In this document: positions 3,798 to 56,897 of the stretch, one piece after another | How positions within the stretch are numbered: position 1 is the first letter of the stretch | Layout: each line of letters opens with the position of its first letter | Assembly (NCBI GenBank): GCA_963843575.1 | Contig: CAWJKZ010000010.1 | Span: forward strand, 544,001-608,000 | Length of the DNA: 64,000 bases | Source: an uncultured Acidobacteriota bacterium | GTDB lineage: Bacteria; Acidobacteriota; UBA6911 | Direction of reading: 5' to 3' | The notes under the pieces: model-generated | What the model saw: only the letters and a program-made list of their open reading frames with translations | What the model was told of the DNA's origin: nothing | The model's database searches: none | Made by a program: the position numbers and the translations under genes

Positions 3798-6700
3798 GTG
3801 AGCAGGGATATTCGTATTCATGGAGTACCGCCTCCCCAGGGTCTGTACGATCCGAGCGGCGAGCGGGACGCTTGCGGCATCGGGTTCGTCGTCAACATCA
3901 ACGGCCAGAAGTCCCATGAAATCATACTGAAGGGGATAGAGATCCTCATCAACCTGACGCACCGCGGCGCCTGCGGGTGCGATCCGGTGACCGGCGACGG
4001 GGCCGGTCTGATGATCCAGATCCCGCACGCGTTTTTCGAGCTCGAATGCGCCAGGCTCGGGTTTGCCCTTCCCAGCCCCGGCGAGTACGGCGTCGGCATG
4101 GTGTTCCTGCCCGTCGAGCGCCACCAGCGTCTCACGTGCGAAGGGATCCTGGAACGTATCGTGCGCGAGGAGGGGCTCAGCGTCGCCGGCTGGCGCGACA
4201 CCCCGATCGACGCCAACGCGATCGGCCGCATCGCGCGCGCCTCGCAGCCGTACATCCAGCAGATCTTCGTGCGGCAGACTCCCGGAATGAACCAGGACGC
4301 GCTCGAGCGCAAGCTCTACGTCATCCGCAAGAGGGCCGAAGCCGAAGTGGCCTCGTCCGAGCTGCACGACAAGGGCTTCTTCTACATGCCCTCGCTCTCT
4401 TCCCGCACGATTGTCTACAAGGGCCTTCTGCTGGCACCGCAGATCGCCCACTTCTACAAGGAGCTCTCGAACCCGGCCGTCGTCAGCGCGCTTTGCCTCG
4501 TGCACCAGCGCTTCTCCACCAACACGTTTCCGACCTGGCACCTCGCCCACCCGTTCCGCTTCATCTGCCACAACGGGGAGATCAACACGCTGAAGGGGAA
4601 CGTGGCGTGGATGGACGCCCGGCAGTCCGTGATGGCCTCGCCGCTCTTCGGTGACGACATCGGGAAGCTCATCCCGATCATCGCCCCGGGGGGCAGCGAC
4701 TCCGCGTGCGTCGACAACGCGGTGGAACTGCTGCACCTCGCTGGCCGAAGCCTGCCGCACGTGATGGCGATGCTGATCCCCGAGGCGTGGGCGTCGGACT
4801 CCTCCATGAGCCCGGCGAAGAAGGCCTTCTACGAGTACCACGCGTCGCTGATGGAGCCGTGGGACGGGCCGGCGGCGATCGCGTTCAGCGACGGCAGGGT
4901 GATCGGAGCGACGCTCGACCGGAACGGCCTCCGCCCGGCCCGCTATCTCGTCACCAACGACGACCTGGTGATCATGGCCTCCGAAACCGGCGTCCTGCCG
5001 GTCAAGCCGGAGGATGTCCGGTTCAAGGGCCGCCTGCAGCCCGGCCGGATGCTCCTGGTGGACACCGAGCAGGGGCGCATCGTGCCCGACGAGGAGATCA
5101 AGGAAGGCCTCGCCGCGCAGACAGCCCTACGCCGAGTGGCTGAAGGAGAACCAGATCACGCTGGAGCAGCTCCCGGCGCCCCCGCGCTGGCACCCGACCG
5201 AACCCGAATCCATGGTCGGCCGGCTGCGCTGTTTCGGGTACACGGACGAGGAGCTGCGCATGATCCTCGCCCCGATGGCCGATCGACGGGCAGGAGCCGG
5301 TCGGGTCGATGGGGACGGACACCCCGCTCGCGTGCCTGTCCGACCGCCCGCAGCTGCTGTTCCACTACTTCAAGCAGCTGTTCGCCCAGGTGACCAACCC
5401 GGCGATCGACCCGATACGCGAGGAGCTGGTCATGTCGCTGACCAGCTTCATCGGCACCGAACGCAACCTGCTCGGCCGAGACGCCGCAACACTGCCACAC
5501 GCTTGAAGCTCGACGACTCCATCCTGACCAACTTCGACCTGGAGAAGCTCCGCCGCGTGTCCTGGGGCGATTTCCTGGCGACCACGCTCCCGATGCTGTA
5601 CCGGGTCGAAGGCGGCGAAAAGGAGCTGGAGCGGGCGCTGGACGGTCTTTGCCGCCGCGCGTCGCTCGCCATCCGCTCGGGCTACAGCCTGCTGATCCTC
5701 TCGGACCGCGGCGTCGAAAGCGATTACGCGCCGATCCCGAGCCTGCTGGCGCTCACGGCGGTGCACAACCACCTCGTGCGCGAGGCGACGCGCACGCAGG
5801 TGGCACTCATCGTGGAATCCGGCGAACCGCGCGAGGTCATGCACTTTGCCCTCCTGATCGGCTACGGCGCCAGCGCCATCAACCCGTACCTCGCCATCGA
5901 GACCATCGAGGAACTCCACCGCCGCGGCACGCTCCCTCCCCACATCACGGCCGCCGGCGCTCTGAAGAACTACAAGAAGGCGATCAACAAGGGCCTGCTC
6001 AAGGTGTTCTCGAAGATGGGCATTTCCACCCTCCAGAGCTACCACGGCGCCCAGGTTTTCGAGGCGATCGGGCTGAACAGGTCCCTGATCGAGAAGTATT
6101 TCACCGGCACGCCCGTCGCGCATCGAAGGGGTCGGGCTCGACGTGCTGGCGCGCGAGTCCAGGATCAAGCACCAGCACTCGCTGCGGCCGGTGACCGGGT
6201 CCGACCTGGAACTGGACTGTGGCGGCCACTACGCGTTCCGGATCGGGGGCGAGTATCACCTCTACAACCCCGTCACGATCAGCAAACTGCAGCACGCGGT
6301 GCGGCAGTCGCGCTACGAGAACTACCGGGAGTACGCCGAGCACGTCAACAACCAGACACGGCAGCTCTGCACCCTGCGCGGCCTGATGACGCTGCGCAAG
6401 TCGCTTCACCCGATTCCGCTCGAGGAGGTCGAACCGGCCCGCGAGATCGTCAAACGCTTCGCCACCGGCGCGATGTCGTTCGGCTCCATCAGCAAGGAAG
6501 CGCACGAGACCCTGGCCATCGCGATGAACCGGATCGGGGCGAAGTCCAACACGGGCGAGGGGGGCGAGGACGAGGCGCGCTTCGCGCCCGACGCCAACGG
6601 CGACTGGCGCCGGAGCGCGATCAAGCAGGTGGCTTCCGGGCGTTTCGGCGTGACCACCAACTACCTGGTCAACGCCGACGAACTGCAGATCAAGATCGCC

Positions 6701-48959: not shown

Positions 48960-49148
48960 AGCTTATGAATCAATGCGGCATGGTCGCGCCTTGTGTCCCT
49001 TTATCATTTCGGCTCGTTTACCTGGTTTAGATCACTTTATTTGGCTCGGCGCCTTGCTGCCTTTTCCGGGGGGGCTTGTCGGAGCCCGAAATGCTATCGT
49101 AATTGCGGAAGCCGGGATCTAATCGATCTGACGGCGAATCACACGAGG

Positions 49149-49586
49149 GTGACCAGCGTGAAGAAAAGCGTTTTGTTTCTGTGTACCGGGAACTCCTGCC
49201 GCAGCCAGATGGCTGAAGGCCTCCTGCGACATCTGGCGGGCGACCGTTACGATGTCGCGAGCGCCGGGACGCAGCCCGGCAACCTGAATCCCGAAGCCGT
49301 GGAAATCATGCGGGAAATAGGTGTGGATATTTCGGGGCACCGCTCGAAGTCCGTCGAGGAGTTCCTTGATCGTGAGTTCGATCATGTGATCACGGTGTGC
49401 GATCATGCCCGGGCTTCATGCCCCATCTTTCCCGCGAGCGTGACCAATCTGCATTGGAGCCTGGAGGATCCTGCTGCCGCAAGCGGTTCGCCCGAGCACA
49501 GGCAGACCGTATTTCGCCGCGTGCGTGACGAAATTGCCAGCCGGCTCCGCGAATTCCTGATCAACCCGGCGGGGGACCCTTCCTGA
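49149..49586 (+). CDS. arsC: Arsenate reductase, LMW-PTP/thioredoxin-coupled type
   Basis: LFLCTGNSCRSQMAEG, VITVCD...CP, HWSLEDP, FRRVRDEI. Confidence 0.93.
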   Translation: MTSVKKSVLFLCTGNSCRSQMAEGLLRHLAGDRYDVASAGTQPGNLNPEAVEIMREIGVDISGHRSKSVEEFLDREFDHVITVCDHARASCPIFPASVTNLHWSLEDPAAASGSPEHRQTVFRRVRDEIASRLREFLINPAGDPS

Positions 49587-49628
49587 CCGATCCGTGCCCC
49601 ACCCGGGAGCGGGTGAGCGCAGTCACTA

Positions 49629-49733
49629 ATGAGGAATGATCAGTTGCGCAGAATGCTGGCTGTCACAAATGCCCTGGCAGACAAAGGCCGCGTGCGGACT
49701 GTCACGCCCTCCACAGGGTGCCTGGCCTCCTGA
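49629..49733 (+). pseudogene. N-terminal remnant of an ArsR-family regulator
   Basis: MRNDQLRRMLAVTNALADKGRVR matches ArsR helix 1 (ALADxxR); similarity then stops. Confidence 0.5.
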
Positions 49734-49743
49734 AACAGTTCCG

Positions 49744-50436
49744 TCAGAACAACTCGAGAATGTGATCGAACGTGTAGTAGAGGCCGACGGCAATAAAAAC
49801 CGCTCCAGTGGCACGCCGCGCCCATCGCTCGATTTCGCCGAGCCTGTTCAGCGCGGCGCTTAGTGACTGGGCCCCGGCAGCCAGCCCGATCGCAAACAGC
49901 GCCACCGGCAGTCCGGTCCCGATGCCGTACAGGACCGGCAGGACGATCCGGGAATCCGCCTTCAGCGAGAGGGGTATCAGGCTCCCGAAAGAAAAGCGCC
50001 GCCGATACCGGGCAGAACGTCAGCGCAAAGATCATGCCCAGCAGTCCCGCCCCCCAGGTTCCCCAGTGTTGGGCGCGATCCTGCAAAGAACTGCTCACCA
50101 GGGAAGTGCTGAAATTGAAGCGGAGCAAGTCGAGCAGGAACATGCCGACCAGTATCAGGATCGGTCCGATCAGACGGTTCATCCAATACTGGAGACGCCA
50201 TCGAGACCTGTGGGATCGACAGCACGCTGCCGACGAGCAGCGCTCCCAGCGCCGCATAGGTCAGGGTTCGGCCGACCGTGTACAGCATCCCCGTCCAGAA
50301 AACCCGGGCCGGCGATGCGACGTCGCGACTTATAAAGGAAATCGCGACGAGATTCGTGGCCAGCGGGCACGGGCTGATCGAGGTCAGGATGCCCAGCCAG
50401 GCAGCGGTCGCCGCCGGAAGGAGAGGAAGGCTCCAC
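49744..50436 (-). CDS. arsG: ArsG-family / CcdA-like membrane protein (about 3 frameshifts)
   Basis: WLGILTSISPCPLATN, YTVGRT, FALTFCPVSAALFF, GSLIPL, YGIGTGLPV. Confidence 0.82.
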
Positions 50437-50932
50437 TACTTCTTCTCCAGGTAGCCGCGGACTCCGTGCTGAACATACCGCAAGGAACGCGTCGTGATCG
50501 CCCGTCAGTTCCCAGACCCGGGTCAGGTTGGTCCACTCCACCTGCTTGCCGTCTTTCATGCGGACCAGGACGAGCGACTTGGTGACCAGCTTGTAGTCCT
50601 GCATGAAATGCTGGTTTTCAGGAGTCTCGACGTTGACGAGCCGGAACTCCAGCTTGCCGTCCGCCAGTTCCCGCGCAAATCCCGTGTCGATCGCCTCCCT
50701 CGAATACGCCTCGATGCGCCGGCACGTCGGGCAGCGGTAGTTCGTGTGGAAATAGTAGGCGACGATCTTGTCGGCTTGCGCTTTGGGCGCGGGTGCCGCT
50801 GCCTGGGATCCCCTCCTGCGCAGCCACGGGATCCGGGGTGGTCCACCGCCGTGATTCCTTGACGGCGAGAAAAACAACGCTCACAAGAACAAAGGCAAGA
50901 AGTGCTGTTTTGATGATGGATTTTGAGCTCAT
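50436..50932 (-). CDS. arsF: ArsF-family exported thioredoxin-like protein (2 frameshifts)
   Basis: N-terminal TM; VAYYFHTNYRCPTCRRIE, NQHFMQDYKLVTKSLVL, WTNLTRVW. Confidence 0.82.
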
Positions 50933-50997
50933 TGGAGCATTCCTCAGAAATCGATACGGATCGTTCCGTGTTCAAGCTGGTTCATGTCGCAGCCCGC

Positions 50998-51243
50998 TCA
51001 GGCGGACAGCGCAATATCCAGCAATAGCCTGCTGATGGAGAGGCGATAGCACGTTTCGTGCTCTTCGCACGTCACGCATCGACGCCATGCTTTTTCGTCG
51101 ACCGAAACCGAGCGGTCCGTAGGCATCATCCCCGGACGCTCAACCCGATAGCTGAGCACCTTGCCGGCCACCGTGACATTGTCGGGGTGCCTGATCACAG
51201 GCGGGAACATCTTTCCATAGCAATCCTTTTCTGCGTTTGCCAT
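50998..51243 (-). CDS. Small Cys-rich hypothetical protein (81 aa)
   Basis: GGAGGA RBS; DCYGKMFP...WRRCVTCEEHETCYRLS. Confidence 0.8.
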   Translation of the reverse strand: MANAEKDCYGKMFPPVIRHPDNVTVAGKVLSYRVERPGMMPTDRSVSVDEKAWRRCVTCEEHETCYRLSISRLLLDIALSA

Positions 51244-51296
51244 GGTCTATCCTCCGGTGCCGGCTGCTCAGGTTGCGGTTTTGTACGACCGTACGC

Positions 51297-51552
51297 TCAA
51301 CCCTTCGCGGCCATGGCGTTTGTCAGCCACGTGGTAACCTCTGCCGCCGTGGGGATGCGTCCCGCGCATACAACCTTCTCGTCGATCACGAGACCCGGGC
51401 GTGGCCAGAATCTGGTACTTACGAATTTGCGGGAAATCCGTGACCTTGGCGATCTCGGCTTCGGCGCCCAAGTCGGTCACGGCTTTCCGGGCAATATCCG
51501 CGACCTTGACGCAGTTCGAGCAACCCGGACCGAGCACTTTGATCGAAATCAT
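51297..51552 (-). CDS. MTH895/ArsE-family small thioredoxin-like protein (frameshift at about 51395)
   Basis: [11 protein letters not shown]...[20 protein letters not shown]. Confidence 0.88.
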
Positions 51553-51569
51553 TTCATCCTCCCAGAAAA

Positions 51570-52350
51570 TCAGTTCTTCAGCTTGGCGTACAAGCCCTCG
51601 AGCCTGGCGTGATAAGCCGCCTTGATATTTCCTTCCTCTTCCCCCAGCGGCTTAACCGGGATCAGATCCATTACTTCTTCAGCCGTCAGGCCCGATCCAA
51701 ACAGGGTTCTTTCAGCGCCGGCCACCATCTCGGAGGTACCGGTTTGCGCCTCCTCGCGCGACAGCCCGAAGGATTCGGCAATTGCCTGCAGCTCGCGGAG
51801 CTGAAACCAGAGGTAGGTGGGGCCCATGGCTGTGAGAATGGCGTACGCTTCCAGCTTGCCTTCATCCACCTCCGGGCACTTGCCCAGGGGCCTCAGCAAA
51901 GCGGATATCTCCGCTCTTTTCGCTTCGGCCCAATCCGCTCGAGAAGGAAACAGGATTGAATCCCTCGCCGATGATGGACGGGGCGTTGGGGATCATGCGG
52001 ACTATGCGGCCGAAGCCGCCCAGCATGCCGGCGAGTTTGGCAGCCGTCAGCTTCGGAGCCAGGGAGATCAGGATCGCATCCGGTTTCAGGCAATCCTTGA
52101 TTTCGCCCAGGCAGCCCCCCAGTGCCGGCGGATGCAGTGCCGCGAAAACCAGATCCTGCCCTGCCGCCGCTTTGTTGTCGTTGTGGGCAATCTGGATCTC
52201 CGGGTACTTCGCCTTCAGCCGCTCCAGGACATCCAGGCTGATGTCGCTGACGACGACGTTCGCCGGCATTTGCCCGGCTTTCTTCAACCCGCCCAGGATG
52301 ATGTGCGCTACCCTTCCCCCGCCGATGAAACCAACGCTCTTCGCTGTCAT
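51570..52350 (-). CDS. Pyrroline-5-carboxylate reductase-like NAD(P)-dependent oxidoreductase (frameshift at about 51912)
   Basis: [28 protein letters not shown]. Lacks the canonical ProC SPGGTT motif. Confidence 0.82.
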
Positions 52351-52847
52351 GGATTTCTCCTTGCAGGTAGTGCCGCATTGCCGGCCTCGCCGGCTCCAGC
52401 AATGATGTCGATTTGAGGTTCGACGACGATTTCCGACTTGATCGAATTCGCGACCAGGCTGTACTTCACCGCGCTTTCGAGCGCCCGCTGCACGCGCTTC
52501 CGTGTCTCTTCCGATTGGGCCGCAGCCGCGCGCACAACGATTCGGGGAGCGAGGGCGACCTTGGTGAAGATCTCCGTCCGGTCCAGCTCGATTCGCTTGG
52601 TGCCTTCCGCGGCGCACTCATAGGAGACGAGGTCCAGCTTGAACCGCTCGGTCGCCCAGATGAACATCATCATGACGCAGGTGTTGACCGCTGCCACAAA
52701 GGCGTCTTCCGGGGTGAGGACCCCGGCATGCCCATGAGCGTCGGGAGGGGCCGAGAAATCCATCTCGGGACCATTTCCCATCCGGATATGCCCCCAGTGT
52801 TCGCCTTTCCAGTGAACGGTCGTGCGGTAAAGAGCCGTGCGGGTCAT
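52347..52847 (-). CDS. OsmC/Ohr-family protein lacking the canonical second Cys
   Basis: SAPP..G...TPEDAFVAAVNTC; the second motif reads KYSLVANSIK. Confidence 0.85.
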   Translation of the reverse strand: MTRTALYRTTVHWKGEHWGHIRMGNGPEMDFSAPPDAHGHAGVLTPEDAFVAAVNTCVMMMFIWATERFKLDLVSYECAAEGTKRIELDRTEIFTKVALAPRIVVRAAAAQSEETRKRVQRALESAVKYSLVANSIKSEIVVEPQIDIIAGAGEAGNAALPARRNP

Positions 52848-53558
52848 TCTCCCTCCGCGCTGTAGGAGGCATAGGCACGGCCGAGCGCCAGCTTCCAGAA
52901 GGCCTCGGCGCCCTCGGGCACCTGGTTGTAGAGCCGCACGGTCTCGAGCAACTCCGCGGCCGTTTCGTCACTGGCAGGTTTGGCAGCTTCGCGGAACATT
53001 TCGAGGATTAGAGGCAATGCCAGGACCTCGACTTGGCGCCCATCGATCTCGAGGACTTTGACGGGCACTCCTGAACCGCAGGAGCAGGTGGCGGTCGGTT
53101 TTTCGTTCGCCGGCGCGGCATCCGCGGCCTGTCCTTGCGTCCTGTCCCAAGGGATTCCGAGCAGCCGGTCGACCTGGCCCGCAATCTCAGCGGCAACGGC
53201 GTTTACGGCGTCCATGCCGGCCGCGTTCAGATCGGCGCGCCGTCCCGAGTTGTCCCGCCGCGGTCGGACACAGATCGTTTACCACGATGGAGGCGGCCGG
53301 TCTTGCGCTGTACATTTCGGTGCCCCGGGCGGCGCATCGCTTTTCACAACCGTCGATCGCTATGGTCGGGTAAAACCGGGCGAACGCTCGATCCCCCTCG
53401 CCCCCTGCGAGAAACAGCGGGAGGCATATGGTGACGGTGGCGTCCGGGCGCAGGGACTCCAGGACCTTGAGGGTTGCGAGCCGGGTGACGGTGCCTTCGG
53501 CCATTTCTTCGCCCGAACACGACACGAGACCCACTTTCCGTTTGGGCAGTTCAGGCAT
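52844..53558 (-). CDS. DGC-domain zinc-binding protein with C-terminal CxC extension (frameshift at about 53228)
   Basis: VSCSG, TICLP, IDGCEKRCA; continues as LNAAGMDAV...ATCSCGSG in the next frame. Confidence 0.85.
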
Positions 53559-53961
53559 TATCCTCCTCCGCCGCGACCCGGTCCGCCAGGTCGGACACTT
53601 CCTCTGCCAGGACGTTTGCGAGCTTATGCCCGGCCTCGTTCAACTCGGCGATCCCGGCCGGTTTCAGGTGCCGGTTCCTTCGATAGACGTCGAGCACCTG
53701 CAGGGCGCGCGCCACGGTCCCGCCCGACTCGGCGACGACCTTGGCGGCGCAGGCAAGCTTGCACCCGTCTATGGTTATCGCCGGAGACGTGTTAATCGCG
53801 TCGCGCACCGCTTCGTCCCCAAGAACCACGAGCGCAAGCGGCACAAGCCGGGTGCTGCCGGGACGGAGGTCTTCGGTAACGATGTGCGCGCTTTCGCGCG
53901 CCACGGTCCCGTAGGTCTTGCCGATGCCGCTGCAGGGCACGATCAGGGTCTTGTGTGTCAT
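53551..53961 (-). CDS. DGC-domain putative zinc-binding protein
   Basis: VPCSGIGK, IDGCKLACA. ATG overlaps the gcvH-like stop. Confidence 0.87.
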   Translation of the reverse strand: MTHKTLIVPCSGIGKTYGTVARESAHIVTEDLRPGSTRLVPLALVVLGDEAVRDAINTSPAITIDGCKLACAAKVVAESGGTVARALQVLDVYRRNRHLKPAGIAELNEAGHKLANVLAEEVSDLADRVAAEEDNA

Positions 53962-54395
53962 TTCTTCAACTCCGCCTCGGCCTGCCGCTTTACCAGTTCG
54001 AGGTAGTCCTGGGGATCGAGCAACCCCTGCCTGTTGAACTCCCCGTCGCTCAACTCGAGAACCACCATCCAACCCTTTCCATACGGGTCCTGGTTGATGA
54101 CCTCCGGGCTATCCTCGAGCAGCGGATTGACCTCGGCAATCTTTCCCGGGACCGGTGTCGGCAGCCCGACGTTCACCTTGACGGTTTCGATGCTCCCGAA
54201 CTCGTCTCCGATATTGACCGCGGTGCCGGCGGGATAGACGTTGGCGAAGGCGATGTCGCCGTTCACCTGTTGGGCGAAATCGGAGAGGCCCAGACGCGCG
54301 CGCGCGCCTTCCACGGCCACCCAGATGCCCGCATCGCTGAACAGGAGTGTCTCGGGAACCCTGAATTTGAATTTGTCAACGGTGACTTCCAGCAT
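53958..54395 (-). CDS. GcvH-like lipoyl-carrier protein
   Basis: LGLSDFAQQ..GDI, GSIETVK (lipoyl-Lys), PVPGKIAEVN, PEVINQDPYGKGW. Confidence 0.93.
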   Translation of the reverse strand: MLEVTVDKFKFRVPETLLFSDAGIWVAVEGARARLGLSDFAQQVNGDIAFANVYPAGTAVNIGDEFGSIETVKVNVGLPTPVPGKIAEVNPLLEDSPEVINQDPYGKGWMVVLELSDGEFNRQGLLDPQDYLELVKRQAEAELKK

Positions 54396-54439
54396 GCTTG
54401 CAGCCTTTCGTCGTCAACCGGCCCGAGTTTCAGGCGGGA

Positions 54440-54841
54440 TTACCTTGAAGTTGCGCATCGTCGGGAAGAGCAGCAGCAGGATCCCGCCGTTTCCAGCCGG
54501 CAGGTTCCGGCGGCAACGGCCTCGCGGAAACGCGCGACGTCGGCCCGCATTAGCTCATCCTGCGGGCAGCAACGGTCCAGGAGTTCATAGAGCGCCTCGA
54601 GATAGGGACTGTCTGTCGCGGAAGCGAGCGCATAAACCATCCGCGTCCCTCTCCGTTCATCCGTGACCAATCCGCCATGTCTCAATGCGGCCAGGTGTCG
54701 TGAAACGCTTGGTTGCGGGATCCGGAGTACGGTTTGGAGATCGCACACGCAGATTCCACCGAGGCGAAGCAGATTTAGGAGACGCAGGCGCGTAGGATCC
54801 GCGGCGGCTTTCAGCATCTCGTCCAATCGACCTGATCGCAT
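54440..54841 (-). CDS. arsR: ArsR/SmtB repressor
   Basis: KAAADPTRLRLL, ICVCDL, SVSRHLAALR, Cys-rich tail. Confidence 0.92.
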   Translation of the reverse strand: MRSGRLDEMLKAAADPTRLRLLNLLRLGGICVCDLQTVLRIPQPSVSRHLAALRHGGLVTDERRGTRMVYALASATDSPYLEALYELLDRCCPQDELMRADVARFREAVAAGTCRLETAGSCCCSSRRCATSR

Positions 54842-54904
54842 GGTTGTTCCTCCTCCATTTGCCTAGCAGGATATTCAAATGTACAGCTGATAGGTGGATT
54901 GGCG

Positions 54905-54955
54905 CAACAGCTATCTATCGCAATTATTCGTATATACAGATACAACATTAATGAT
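54905..54955. promoter_or_regulatory. AT-rich imperfect palindrome, candidate ArsR operator/promoter
   Basis: TATCTATCGCAATTATTCGTATATACAGATA, about 70 nt upstream of the arsR start. Confidence 0.5.
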
Positions 54956-55089
54956 GGAAAAAGAGCCGGTCCCTGGTCGGAAACCCTTCCCTCATGATGG
55001 GAGGCGGTCCGGCCTTGATGTATGCGGCGCAAGCGCAGGATGCGATTAAACAATTCCAGCCCCAGCCCGCCTACCGCTTACCCCACCTC

Positions 55090-55118
55090 TTGACTGCAAC
55101 CGTCAAACCGGTTATAAG
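55090..55118 (+). promoter_or_regulatory. Sigma70-type promoter of arsR2-acr3
   Basis: TTGACT-17 nt-TATAAG. Confidence 0.65.
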
Positions 55119-55142
55119 AATGTCGTCCCATGAGGTAACACA

Positions 55143-55544
55143 GTGAAGGATACGGCCGAATTCTTTGGGGTTCTCGCCGACGAGGCCCGGCTCAAGATGC
55201 TCTGGCTCCTGTTCAATCACCGCGAGCTCTGCGTCTGCGATTTCATGGAAGTGCTTGGCATCACCCAGTCGAAGGCTTCCCGGCACCTCAGGATCCTGTA
55301 TCGGGCAGGCCTCGTCACCGACCGGCGCGATGGGTTGTGGGTCTACTATGCGCTTCGTCCACTGGAGCCGGGATTGGAAAAGGCCCTGCTGGCCGAGTTG
55401 TGCGAGCACCTGGCCGACCGGCCCGCAGCCGTGCAGCTGCTCGCAAAATTGTCGGCTTGGCGTGGCCGCGACGGGGCGGAGCTGCATCGCACCCGAAGAC
55501 CGGCGTGTGGCCCCGAGTCGGGCGAGCGCGTGCTGCCCGACTGA
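55143..55544 (+). CDS. arsR: ArsR/SmtB repressor
   Basis: LADEARL, ELCVCD, SKASRHLRIL, RRDGLWVYY. Confidence 0.93.
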   Translation: MKDTAEFFGVLADEARLKMLWLLFNHRELCVCDFMEVLGITQSKASRHLRILYRAGLVTDRRDGLWVYYALRPLEPGLEKALLAELCEHLADRPAAVQLLAKLSAWRGRDGAELHRTRRPACGPESGERVLPD

Positions 55545-55556
55545 ATTGTCCGGGCG

Positions 55557-55657
55557 GTGAGGGTCTGCGAGAACTGCTGGTGTTTCTGTATAACGAATGT
55601 TGTTCAAGAAAAGGCGAGAACGTTTTTCGAGTCGGAAAACCGACGGCGTGCTGCTGA
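55557..55657 (+). pseudogene. C-terminal remnant of a different ArsR (vicinal CC type)
   Basis: EGLRELLVFLYNECCSRK...TACC*, with no start codon of its own. Confidence 0.6.
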
Positions 55658-55690
55658 ATCTGCGTCCAGGTCAGTGGGAGAGCACTTGAT

Positions 55691-56777
55691 ATGAGTCGAG
55701 CAACTGTTGAGGTCGCAGCGAAGCGGCTGAGTGTCTTCGAAAGATACCTGAGCCTGTGGGTCGGAGCCTGCATGATTGTCGGCGTCATCCTCGGCAAGCT
55801 CGTGCCGGCTTCTATCGACAGTTTGAGACGGATGGAATTCGGCAGCGGCAGCCAGATCAACATTCCGATCGCCGTCCTGATCTGGCTGATGATCATACCC
55901 ATGATGATGAAGGTCGACTTTGCTTCGATCCGCAATGTCGGGAAGCGGCCGCGGGGGCTGTTGGTGACCCTGTTCGTCAACTGGCTGGTGAAGCCATTTT
56001 CCATGGCGCTGATCGCGTGGGTCTTTTTCCGATTGGTCTTTTCCCTCTGGATTTCGCCGGCAGAGGCGGATCAGTACATTGCCGGCTGCATTATTCTGGC
56101 CGCCGCACCCTGCACCGCGATGGTGTTCGTCTGGAGCTACCTCACGGACGGGGATCCCGCCTACACGCTGGTGCAGGTTTCGGTGAACGACCTGATCATG
56201 CTGGTCCTGTTCGCGCCGATCGTGCGGTTCCTGGTGAGCGGCGCCTCGTCACTCGAAGTGCCGTTCCGCGTCCTTCTCTATGCTGTGGCGATCTTCATCG
56301 TCGATCCCCCTGACCGTCGGCGTGATTCTGCGGGGCTGGTTCATCCACAGAAAGGGATCGGAATGGTTTGAGCAGACGCTGCTGCCGCGCTTTGCGCCGG
56401 TCAGCATGACGGCGCTGCTGGCGACTCTTGTGTTGATTTTCGCGTTCCAGGCCGACAACATCACGCAGAAATACCTGCATGTCCTGCTTATCGCGGTGCC
56501 GATTCTCATCCAGGTCTACTTCAATTCGTCGCTGACCTACGGCCTGATGCGGCTGTTCAAGGTTCCCTACTCGGTTGCCGCCCCGGGCGCGCTCATCGGC
56601 GCGAGCAACTTCTTCGAGCTGGCGGTAGCCACCGCCATCGCCCTTTTCGGACCCGGCTCGGGAGCGGCTCTGGCCACAGTCGTCGGCGTCCTCATCGAAG
56701 TGCCCGTGATGCTGTCGGTCTGCTCGGTCTGCAACCGCACGCGCCACTGGTTCAGGGTTGTGCCGGCCGAAAGTTAA
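55691..56777 (+). CDS. acr3: ACR3-family arsenite efflux transporter (frameshift at about 56303)
   Basis: FERYLSLWV, LIWLMIIPMMMKVDF, NWLVKPF, APCTAMVFVWS, GASNFFELAVA, GVLIEVPVML. Confidence 0.96.
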
Positions 56778-56897
56778 CCAGCGGCTGGCGGCGCACATCA
56801 GTGTCTGCTCGGAGAAGCGATGAAAAGCCTCGAAGGGGCTCGGCCATCCAGATCCCTGCGGTGCCAGATGGTCGGGCCCAAACGGGCGCCCGGATCG

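Follow-up and report, generated by a model that had tools for sequence, protein, structure and literature searches.

Dihydrolipoyl groups are classical high-affinity targets of As(III), and dithiols bind As(III) avidly. Arsenate reductases (ArsC) of the pI258/Bacillus type are coupled to thioredoxin and use a three-cysteine relay. ArsD is an arsenic metallochaperone, a small protein with three essential cysteines that is encoded in ars operons. Mycobacterium tuberculosis has a relay that runs from NADH through Lpd, the lipoyl protein SucB and AhpD to AhpC. Nyvltova et al. reportedly described, in 2016, a peroxide-reducing chain of L protein, H protein and OsmC in the hydrogenosomes of Trichomonas vaginalis, and Cussiol et al. 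are said to have described a lipoyl-dependent Ohr peroxidase in 2010. ArsEFG is reportedly a system for organoarsenicals, attributed to Chen, Zhang and Rosen in 2019; the roles that we give to its members follow NCBIfam names. Dedicated H-protein paralogues outside glycine cleavage include LbpA of sHdr sulfur oxidation and GcvH-L of Staphylococcus aureus, as described in two articles (PMC10332631, PMC12440151). Here, we analysed a stretch of 64,000 nucleotides (nt) from an uncultured soil Acidobacteriota bacterium (GenBank assembly GCA_963843575.1, contig CAWJKZ010000010.1, positions 544,001 to 608,000 of the forward strand), hereafter called the window. It contains an ArsR-led operon whose core encodes a GcvH-like lipoyl carrier, two DGC-domain proteins (DGC1 and DGC2) and an OsmC-like protein.

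The operon comprises ten co-oriented genes on the minus strand (49744-54841), located between arsC and a divergent arsR2-acr3 pair, which are all on the plus strand. Its genes encode, in order, ArsR1, the GcvH-like protein, DGC1, DGC2, the OsmC-like protein, a ProC-like protein, an ArsE-type thioredoxin-like protein, a protein of 81 amino acids (aa) with four cysteines (Cys4), ArsF and ArsG (Table 1). An earlier note on this DNA, made by a model from the letters alone, had described this layout with overlapping stop and start codons. Our scans of the open reading frames (ORFs) against Pfam and NCBIfam profiles, with their cut-offs, agreed with the layout, and the overlaps were found at five junctions: ATGA at GcvH/DGC1, DGC2/OsmC and OsmC/ProC, an overlap of 8 nt at DGC1/DGC2, and TAGTG at ArsF/ArsG. 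We suggest that this is an ArsR-controlled, lipoate-based thiol-redox module, in which an arsenite-induced dithiol carrier would feed ArsC and the OsmC-like enzyme; the probability of this reading is, in our estimate, roughly 0.5. The cassette probably supplies reducing power for arsenic detoxification.

We investigated the same gene neighbourhood in other genomes. A pattern scan of one genome per species gave 321 matched stretches, 246 of which were confirmed by tblastn, and the best 80 loci were analysed. By their record titles, they belong to Acidobacteriota (including Aminicenantes), Chloroflexota (the majority), Planctomycetota, Bacteroidota, Geobacter and a "delta proteobacterium", that is, to at least five phyla. 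Neighbours were counted by tblastn with the window proteins and by clustering of the neighbouring ORFs. Core genes were counted in the 73 loci whose sequence extends at least 2.1 kb beyond the downstream end of GcvH. DGC1 was present in 72 of them, DGC2 in 73, the OsmC-like gene in 73 and all three in 72. The arrangement of the core is far from chance, because the same order (GcvH-like, DGC1, DGC2, OsmC-like) was found in 72 of the 73 loci. The other locus, L054 (Planctomycetota), has the permuted order GcvH-OsmC-ArsE-DGC1-DGC2, followed by ArsF.

The linkage of the core to ars genes across phyla, which the earlier note had left to a neighbourhood analysis, was found in every locus. ArsR was encoded within 10 kb in 77 of the 80 loci and a dedicated ars gene in 54 (33 of the 41 loci with full flanks, i.e., at least 9 kb on both sides), and one or the other was present in all 80; these counts were set against an estimate that ars genes would make up about 1% of a genome, not against random loci. 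Among the 65 loci with enough flank, 49 had ArsR on the same strand within 2.6 kb upstream. In 15 of the 80 loci, the gene that immediately precedes GcvH on its strand encodes a dihydrolipoyl dehydrogenase (Lpd; 489 bits; equivalog cut-off 408.8).

The lipoyl lysine of the GcvH-like protein, which the earlier note had read as retained, is K73 in an ETVK hairpin and was invariant in 60 of 60 aligned cassette copies. The protein does not reach the TIGR00527 equivalog cut-off of 115.85 bits, and it is 32-40% identical to canonical GcvH proteins. The canonical copy of the same genome lies beside gcvT on contig C26; it is 34% identical to the cassette copy and scores 157.4 bits with PF01597, versus 104.3 for the cassette copy. 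Five other carrier genomes also have a separate GcvH copy of 143-156 bits each, with a cassette copy of 102-112 bits. In a quick tree of 98 rows, 81 cassette copies fell on one side of a weakly supported branch (SH-aLRT 65), and the phyla were intermixed, as expected for mobile ars islands. The closest relatives are proteins of 145 aa that are 70-86% identical. By these comparisons, the GcvH-like protein is a paralogue and not the glycine-cleavage H protein of the genome, in line with the distinction that had been anticipated. It was also correct that the window has no gcvT, gcvP, lpd or lipoate gene: gcvH-gcvT is on C26, and contig C14 carries lipA (382.8 bits), one lpd (558 bits) and one match to the BPL/LplA/LipB family. 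A third, weaker GCV_H-like domain (67 bits) forms the C-terminus of a protein of about 224 aa elsewhere in the genome (G000:C27:86720-87025, L083), and similar paralogues occur in other carrier genomes (relatives L096 and L097).

Fusion and adjacency to thioredoxin-type ArsC are the strongest functional clue for this GcvH subfamily. Eighteen of the 19 longer GcvH-like homologues are fusions of about 271-289 aa, which join a low-molecular-weight-phosphatase/ArsC domain to a GcvH part of this subfamily. They are 50-60% identical to the window GcvH-like protein over 98-100% of it, and several are titled "arsenate reductase" in the databases. Six complete fusions (P0137, P0144, P0146, P0148, P0151 and P0154) keep the CX5R loop, two distal cysteines and the lipoyl lysine; the fusion P0141 is without the N-terminal loop. 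The ArsC of the window is 64% identical to the ArsC half of P0141 over 119 aa and also has the CX5R loop and two distal cysteines, the features that define thioredoxin-type ArsC. Both the window ArsC (Table 1) and the ArsC halves of the fusions (115-120 bits) remain under the TIGR02691 equivalog cut-off of 174.3.

We also scanned metagenomes for ArsC-GcvH and classified the best 80 of 482 confirmed stretches. Four contigs (L120-L123) have one uninterrupted ArsC-GcvH frame that is followed directly by DGC1-DGC2-OsmC. In 10 further stretches the two parts are 0-66 nt apart in different frames, that is, they are adjacent genes. The remaining stretches had the ArsC part only (15), the GcvH part only (44), both parts 3.8 kb apart (2) or were unclassed (5). 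ArsC is directly upstream of GcvH in four of four genomes of the window's phylum, which were chosen as known to have matches. Among the first 80 loci, 19 had a same-strand ArsC between -3 and +6 kb, and in two of the 80 it stood directly upstream. Between ArsC and GcvH, locus L119 (G361) has a short stretch (4249-4431) that matches the C-terminal end of Lpd (query residues 408-466) and may be a remnant or a small domain.

The OsmC-like protein has two cysteines, C57 and C78, that were invariant in 66 of 66 copies. C57 aligns with the first (peroxidatic) cysteine of 2onf and 2d7v, the nearest solved OsmC-like structures, both of which are hypothetical proteins. Their second (resolving) cysteine is replaced by S130, which was invariant in 60 of 60 copies. 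The protein thus fails one defining feature of OsmC/Ohr peroxidases, because Ser130 stands in place of the second cysteine. It touched only one NCBIfam peroxiredoxin model, with 30.7 bits versus a cut-off of 166.15.

Modelling of a complex between two OsmC-like chains and one GcvH-like chain supports the earlier idea that GcvH may feed OsmC. The complex scored 0.81, 0.79 and 0.79 in three runs, and none of three controls exceeded 0.00. The runs shared at least 93% of their contacts, with a partner pLDDT of at least 92. In the calibration of the method, 58 of 80 solved complexes and 2 of 110 mismatched pairs attained the mark, a calibration that holds only roughly for our own alignments and a three-chain job. 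On the GcvH side, the modelled interface involves residues 43-50 and 70-74, which include the lipoyl hairpin. In the OsmC-like dimer, one subunit contributes residues 64-70 and 114-129, among them K128 and Y129 beside S130, and the second subunit contributes residues 87-90. We know of no solved complex of an H protein with OsmC.

DGC1 and DGC2 are obligatory cysteine-cluster partners, which may bind metal or As(III) or may be the entry point of electrons. The DGC domain is described as having four conserved cysteines in a preprint (bioRxiv 10.1101/2022.10.17.512643). This preprint also gave the one published mention that our searches returned, a DGC gene without an assigned function that belongs to an ArsR-ArsP-ArsE operon in Pseudodesulfovibrio mercurii. 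DGC1 has only three of the four (C10, C67 and C71, invariant in 69 of 69 copies), and a nearly invariant PCSGIGK loop follows its strand 1. DGC2 has all four (C14, C45, C71 and C75) plus a CxC motif (C158 and C160), invariant in 70 of 70 copies. The "second DGC" is a protein of 237 residues with a C-terminal domain bearing an invariant CxC, and in 70 of the 80 loci a single ORF covers at least 85% of this reference. A 123-aa ORF at 52844-53215 was rejected as an eleventh gene, as it corresponds to the C-terminal half of the 237-aa DGC2 in L002, L004 and L005. The DGC genes of this genome are confined to this operon. In a phylum-wide sample, full DGC2 was patchy and occurred in 13 of 401 genomes (12 of 228 genera). 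One of the 19 longer GcvH-like homologues, P0155, is a DGC-GcvH fusion.

The AlphaFold2 model of DGC1 is flavodoxin-like (pLDDT 94, pTM 0.89). That of DGC2 (pLDDT 84) starts with a flavodoxin-like domain, continues with a linker of low confidence (residues 146-162, pLDDT <50) that bears Cys158-x-Cys160, and ends in a small domain of a hairpin plus helices. Foldseek gave no match in the PDB at E ≤0.001 for either protein, and profile searches of the PDB were empty at E limits of 1 (A2) and 10 (A6). The best VIA-align hit of both was 3pu6, an uncharacterised protein, amid generic flavodoxin-like rows. Chains of low-molecular-weight phosphatase or ArsC ranked low (Z 6.1 at VIA rank 50 for DGC2; Foldseek rank 44 for DGC1), so that an ArsC-like fold of the predicted DGC structures is neither shown nor excluded.

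The proposed mechanism, which we regard as the parsimonious one, can be outlined as follows. The GcvH paralogue would be lipoylated by the housekeeping machinery, and its dithiol could be kept reduced by Lpd and NADH, with the housekeeping Lpd serving here and an operon-encoded Lpd elsewhere. The ProC-like NAD(P)H enzyme of the operon is a possible alternative reductant. The swinging lipoyl arm would then serve the thiol enzymes of the ars island. The gene fusions and adjacency suggest that it re-reduces the ArsC disulfide in place of thioredoxin. The complex model and residue conservation suggest that it docks on the OsmC-like dimer and acts in trans as the missing resolving cysteine. In the Acidobacteriota lineage of the window, the core shares one operon with ArsE, the Cys4 miniprotein, the membrane-anchored ArsF and the transmembrane CcdA-like ArsG. 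What the data show is the conservation of the cassette, its gene context, the fusions and the residue patterns, together with a complex model that passes its calibration mark; that the carrier is lipoylated, how electrons flow, the induction by arsenic and each step of catalysis are inferred.

Several observations weigh against this mechanism. The operon is presumably induced by arsenic, judging only from the ArsR family and the CVC cysteines present in both ArsR1 and ArsR2 (Table 1). CVC in the DNA-binding region is the motif of As(III)-responsive ArsR. Since dihydrolipoyl is a target of As(III), the carrier should be poisoned by its own inducer, which fits a trap at least as well. An operon Lpd was found in only 15 of the 80 loci and none is in this window. 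No match to lipA or a lipoate ligase was found in the 80 loci with the LipA and BPL-family queries of this genome, which weaker relatives could escape. ArsC was not within 10 kb in 47 of the 80 loci, and the arsC of the window is convergent and outside the operon; therefore, feeding ArsC cannot be the sole role. The complex result is the confidence of a model and no measurement, and it supports binding without proving it. The best Z values of the DGC models (9.2 for DGC1 and 8.4 for DGC2) are within the range of common arrangements, and no specific structural relative emerged.

The poisoning argument leads to the alternative that survives best, although we regard it as rather unlikely. The cassette could be a trap or chaperone for As(III) and organoarsenicals, in which the reduced lipoyl arm and a three-cysteine site of DGC1 would bind trivalent arsenicals. 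It would shield the lipoyl enzymes of central metabolism and deliver arsenic to Acr3, ArsA or ArsP, in the way that ArsD supplies ArsA. The invariant lipoyl lysine and the avid binding of As(III) by dithiols agree with this. So do exactly three invariant cysteines in DGC1, four plus a CxC on a low-confidence linker in DGC2, and common efflux neighbours (Acr3 in 34 and ArsA in 15 of the 80 loci). The DGC gene of P. mercurii also stands beside ArsP and ArsE, according to the preprint cited above. However, the upstream Lpd genes and the fusion to a redox enzyme, ArsC, favour electron transfer over stoichiometric binding. A stoichiometric sink would also be costly.

An extended form of the redox module is a self-contained, lipoate-driven reductase of arsenate and organoarsenicals, which we consider unlikely. 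It would add another source of power for arsenic reduction to thioredoxin, glutaredoxin and mycothiol. Electrons would pass from NADH through Lpd and lipoyl-GcvH to both ArsC and DGC1, the latter being a new three-cysteine enzyme, and DGC2 with its CxC arm and the one-cysteine OsmC-like protein would handle the trivalent product. Within this scheme, a nucleophilic cysteine in the glycine-rich, lysine-bearing loop of DGC1 and the CxxxC after strand 3 would mimic the ArsC relay on an unrelated flavodoxin-like fold. DGC1 as a second reductase would explain the 47 loci without a nearby ArsC.

It is doubtful that the cassette serves only lipoyl-dependent peroxide defence, in which Lpd, the H-protein paralogue and an OsmC-like peroxidase act without any direct effect on arsenicals. 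Co-regulation with ars genes would then be due to the oxidative stress caused by arsenic. The docking model, the retained first cysteine of the OsmC family and the AhpD-like proteins in 23 of the 80 loci could be explained in this way, and the T. vaginalis chain and lipoyl-dependent Ohr offer precedents. However, this explanation accounts neither for the ArsC-GcvH fusions nor for the two obligatory DGC proteins and the near-exclusive ArsR context. Many carriers also belong, by record titles, to groups regarded as anaerobic (Anaerolineae, Geobacter and Aminicenantes), and the OsmC-like protein combines the absence of the canonical resolving cysteine with a peroxiredoxin score far under the cut-off.

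The printed window might also suggest a decaying, non-functional ars island with real pseudogenes. The C-terminus of ArsR1, DGC2, the ProC-like gene, ArsE, ArsF (twice), ArsG (three times) and, outside the operon, acr3 are out of frame. The G+C content at about 48-60 kb (0.59-0.60) is also below that of the left flank (0.65-0.68). This lower G+C content, and the collinearity with L001 and L002 that is confined to about 49147-56861, give the region the look of an acquired island, with flanks differing per genome. We interpreted the split genes via intact orthologues, with the collinear relatives L001 and L002 as frame reference (82-84% DNA identity across the operon).

Compared with L001 and/or L002, all nine mapped frame changes of the operon are 1-nt insertions in the window (near 54479, 53232, 51915, 51400, 50809-50816, 50480-50485, 50424, 50196 and 49988-49991). 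For example, the printed ORF of ArsR1 stops at 54440; after removal of the insertion near 54479, it ends in QGNPA with a TGA at 54432-54430, and the orthologues in L001 and L002 also terminate in QGNPA. DGC2 was recovered by tblastn in two pieces (53558-53232 and 53230-52850) and ArsF in three. The pieces between the breaks match intact orthologues at 75-95% identity. Two insertion sites are spanned by contigs from an independent run, and the window is one base longer at both: one contig omits the base at 50197, and in the other 65 letters replace 66 window letters across 51889-51956. Each is a single contig of depth about 2, which lends weak support to an assembly error. The breaks are assembly errors and not decay, because essential rpoB (C24:252860-257103, at least five frame pieces) and gcvT (C26:103406-104485, four frame pieces) of the same genome are split likewise. 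On this ground, pseudogenes were ruled out as a description of the operon, and a decaying island is very improbable. Single-base insertions seem to be frequent throughout the assembly, and the 88% completeness estimate may suffer from them.

We give hardly any credence to the view that this is a regular H protein of glycine cleavage or one-carbon metabolism whose gene happens to adjoin ars genes: the GCV_H domain, the lipoyl lysine and database titles such as 'glycine cleavage system H protein' would allow it, but the better-scoring gcvH beside gcvT, the separate high-scoring copies in five other carrier genomes, the score under the TIGR00527 cut-off and the weakly supported grouping of the cassette copies all speak against it.

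Table 1. Genes of the ArsR-led operon and neighbouring features of the window. Positions are those of the window; scores are profile matches, and cut-offs are those of the respective models.
Feature	Position	Strand	Evidence
arsC, low-molecular-weight-phosphatase (thioredoxin) type; start approximate	49155..49586	+	TIGR02691 152.3 bits (cut-off 174.3)
ArsG, DsbD_2/CcdA-like membrane protein; frame changes near 50424, 50196 and 49990	49744..50436	-	NF040495 in pieces; Pfam DsbD_2 in the intact L005 orthologue
ArsF, N-terminal membrane helix and CPTC thioredoxin-like domain; two frame changes, at about 50810-50829 and about 50480	50436..50932	-	NF040494 112.7 bits (cut-off 60)
Cys4 protein, 81 aa (Cys8, 56, 59, 65)	50998..51243	-	no Pfam/NCBIfam match
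ArsE-type thioredoxin-like (CxxC), ~84 aa; split near 51400	51297..51552	-	Thioredoxin_3; TIGR00412
ProC-like NAD(P)-binding oxidoreductase, ~259 aa; split near 51915	51570..52350	-	PF03807 and PF14748; TIGR00112 well below cut-off
OsmC-like, 166 aa; intact	52347..52847	-	PF02566 41.5 bits (cut-off 27.5)
DGC2, ~237 aa; split by 1-nt insertion near 53232	52844..53558	-	PF08859 54.8 bits (cut-off 27)
DGC1, 136 aa; intact	53551..53961	-	PF08859 51.8 bits (cut-off 27)
GcvH-like lipoyl carrier, 145 aa; intact	53958..54395	-	PF01597 104.4 bits (cut-off 22.2); TIGR00527 108.5
arsR1, ArsR/SmtB repressor	54430..54841	-	HTH_5 E 1.7e-13; NF033788 84.3 bits (cut-off 55); ICVCDL
arsR2, divergent from arsR1	55143..55544	+	NF033788 92.8 bits; LCVCDF motif
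acr3, arsenite efflux; two frames, break near 56280-56371	55691..56777	+	TIGR00832 positions 1-184 and 185-327 in two ORFs
ORF, 543 aa	59479..61110	-	signal-like N-terminus; HEMGHSIGLPH zinc-protease-like motif
ORF, 512 aa	61154..62692	-	

Downstream of the core, the ProC-like, Cys4, ArsF and ArsG genes are additions of narrower distribution. The ProC-like enzyme, which the earlier note had proposed as a partner, did not prove to be a general one, as it was found in only four of the 80 loci. ArsF (7 of 80) and ArsG (5 of 80) are likewise lineage-specific additions to the cassette. The transmembrane thiol exchange through Trx, ArsF and ArsG that was put forward before is a reasonable idea, though by these counts the cassette does not have it as a general feature. 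The truncated ArsE ORF of the window scores 52.9 bits with TIGR00412 (cut-off 62), and the intact orthologue in L002 scores 89.2; the CxxC of ArsE was invariant in 65 of 65 copies. For ArsG, the window pieces score 20.9, 80 and 39.3 bits with NF040495 in three frames (cut-off 200), and the intact orthologue in L005 scores 272.9. The Cys4 protein has 16 relatives among 5.8 billion proteins, 13 of which are exactly 81 aa long, and its gene was found in three of the 80 loci (L001-L003).

Other neighbours in the 80 loci were ArsE-type proteins (67), ArsC (33), radical-SAM/SPASM proteins (30), a PF04060 Fe-S protein (23), TauE (16), ArsD (12), XdhC-like proteins (11) and ArsM (10). The radical-SAM/SPASM protein is absent here. 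It has an AbrB/MazE-like N-terminus and is encoded next to ArsR on the upstream side of the core (e.g., L057:13531-14787; also L116, L117 and L120-L123), in most loci examined between ArsR and GcvH or ArsC. Its nearest model is a maturase of a tungsten-cofactor oxidoreductase (277 bits; cut-off 380).

We searched 49400-55300 for regulatory signals. Sigma-70-like promoters numbered 0 (1.1 expected), and terminator-like sites were at chance level (6 found versus 5.2 expected). The operator search of the arsR1/arsR2 spacer gave short imperfect palindromes only. Among sequencing runs, no RNA run was listed as containing this DNA, and one DNA run contained 9% of the sampled words. The two ORFs to the right of the ars island are listed in Table 1.

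Searches of article full texts found neither the cassette nor a lipoyl-coupled ArsC described in any paper; one article (PMC7438021) has arsR in its text, but neither GcvH nor OsmC nor lipoyl. We regard as new the diagnosis of the frameshifts, the two-domain DGC2, the ArsC-GcvH and DGC-GcvH fusions with their context, the GcvH/OsmC docking and the union of core and ArsEFG in an Acidobacteriota variant. If the proposed module is real, lipoic acid, the textbook target of arsenite, would become a tool of detoxification in hundreds of uncultured species. The ArsC-GcvH fusions offer a testable hypothesis, namely that NADH, Lpd and lipoyl-GcvH act as the reductant of ArsC. The fusions also offer a starting point for work on the DGC domain, for which neither a function nor a solved structure is known. 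Surveys of ars genes in soils, sediments and aquifers would overlook such genes when they are labelled "glycine cleavage H", "OsmC" or "hypothetical".

Finally, the locus can be compared with the systems introduced above. The models of ArsE, ArsF and ArsG were matched by window pieces or by intact orthologues, as in ArsEFG, whereas here these genes follow the lipoyl core in one operon with the ProC-like and Cys4 genes, and ArsF and ArsG are rare among the loci. As a three-cysteine protein of ars operons, DGC1 is a possible analogue of ArsD. However, DGC1 and DGC2 matched no ArsD family in the Pfam and NCBIfam scans (no direct comparison was made), their models are flavodoxin-like, and ArsD itself is a separate gene in 12 of the 80 cassette loci. 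LbpA and GcvH-L resemble the GcvH-like protein as dedicated lipoyl carriers that, in the articles cited, are recruited to thiol, sulfur or oxidative-stress chemistry. The cassette differs in its partners (DGC, OsmC-like and ArsC) and in its ArsR regulator.

The M. tuberculosis relay shares the series of Lpd, lipoyl protein, CxxC adaptor and thiol enzyme, with ArsE-type or AhpD-like proteins accompanying the core as candidate adaptors. Unlike that relay, the cassette carrier is a free H-protein paralogue and not an E2, its end enzyme is OsmC-like and not AhpC, and its context is arsenic. The window and fusion ArsC proteins match the TIGR02691 model of the pI258/Bacillus type (115-152 bits), with the CX5R loop and two distal cysteines, but all are under the cut-off, and the proposed reductant is the lipoyl arm and not thioredoxin. 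The T. vaginalis chain and the lipoyl-dependent Ohr are similar in combining an H-protein-type carrier with an enzyme of the OsmC family, with Lpd adjoining in 15 of the 80 loci and a hairpin that is predicted to dock. However, the carrier of the cassette is a dedicated paralogue in an ArsR context, which in some lineages is fused or adjacent to ArsC. Its OsmC-like protein has lost the resolving cysteine and has the invariant C78, and the two DGC proteins are obligatory.

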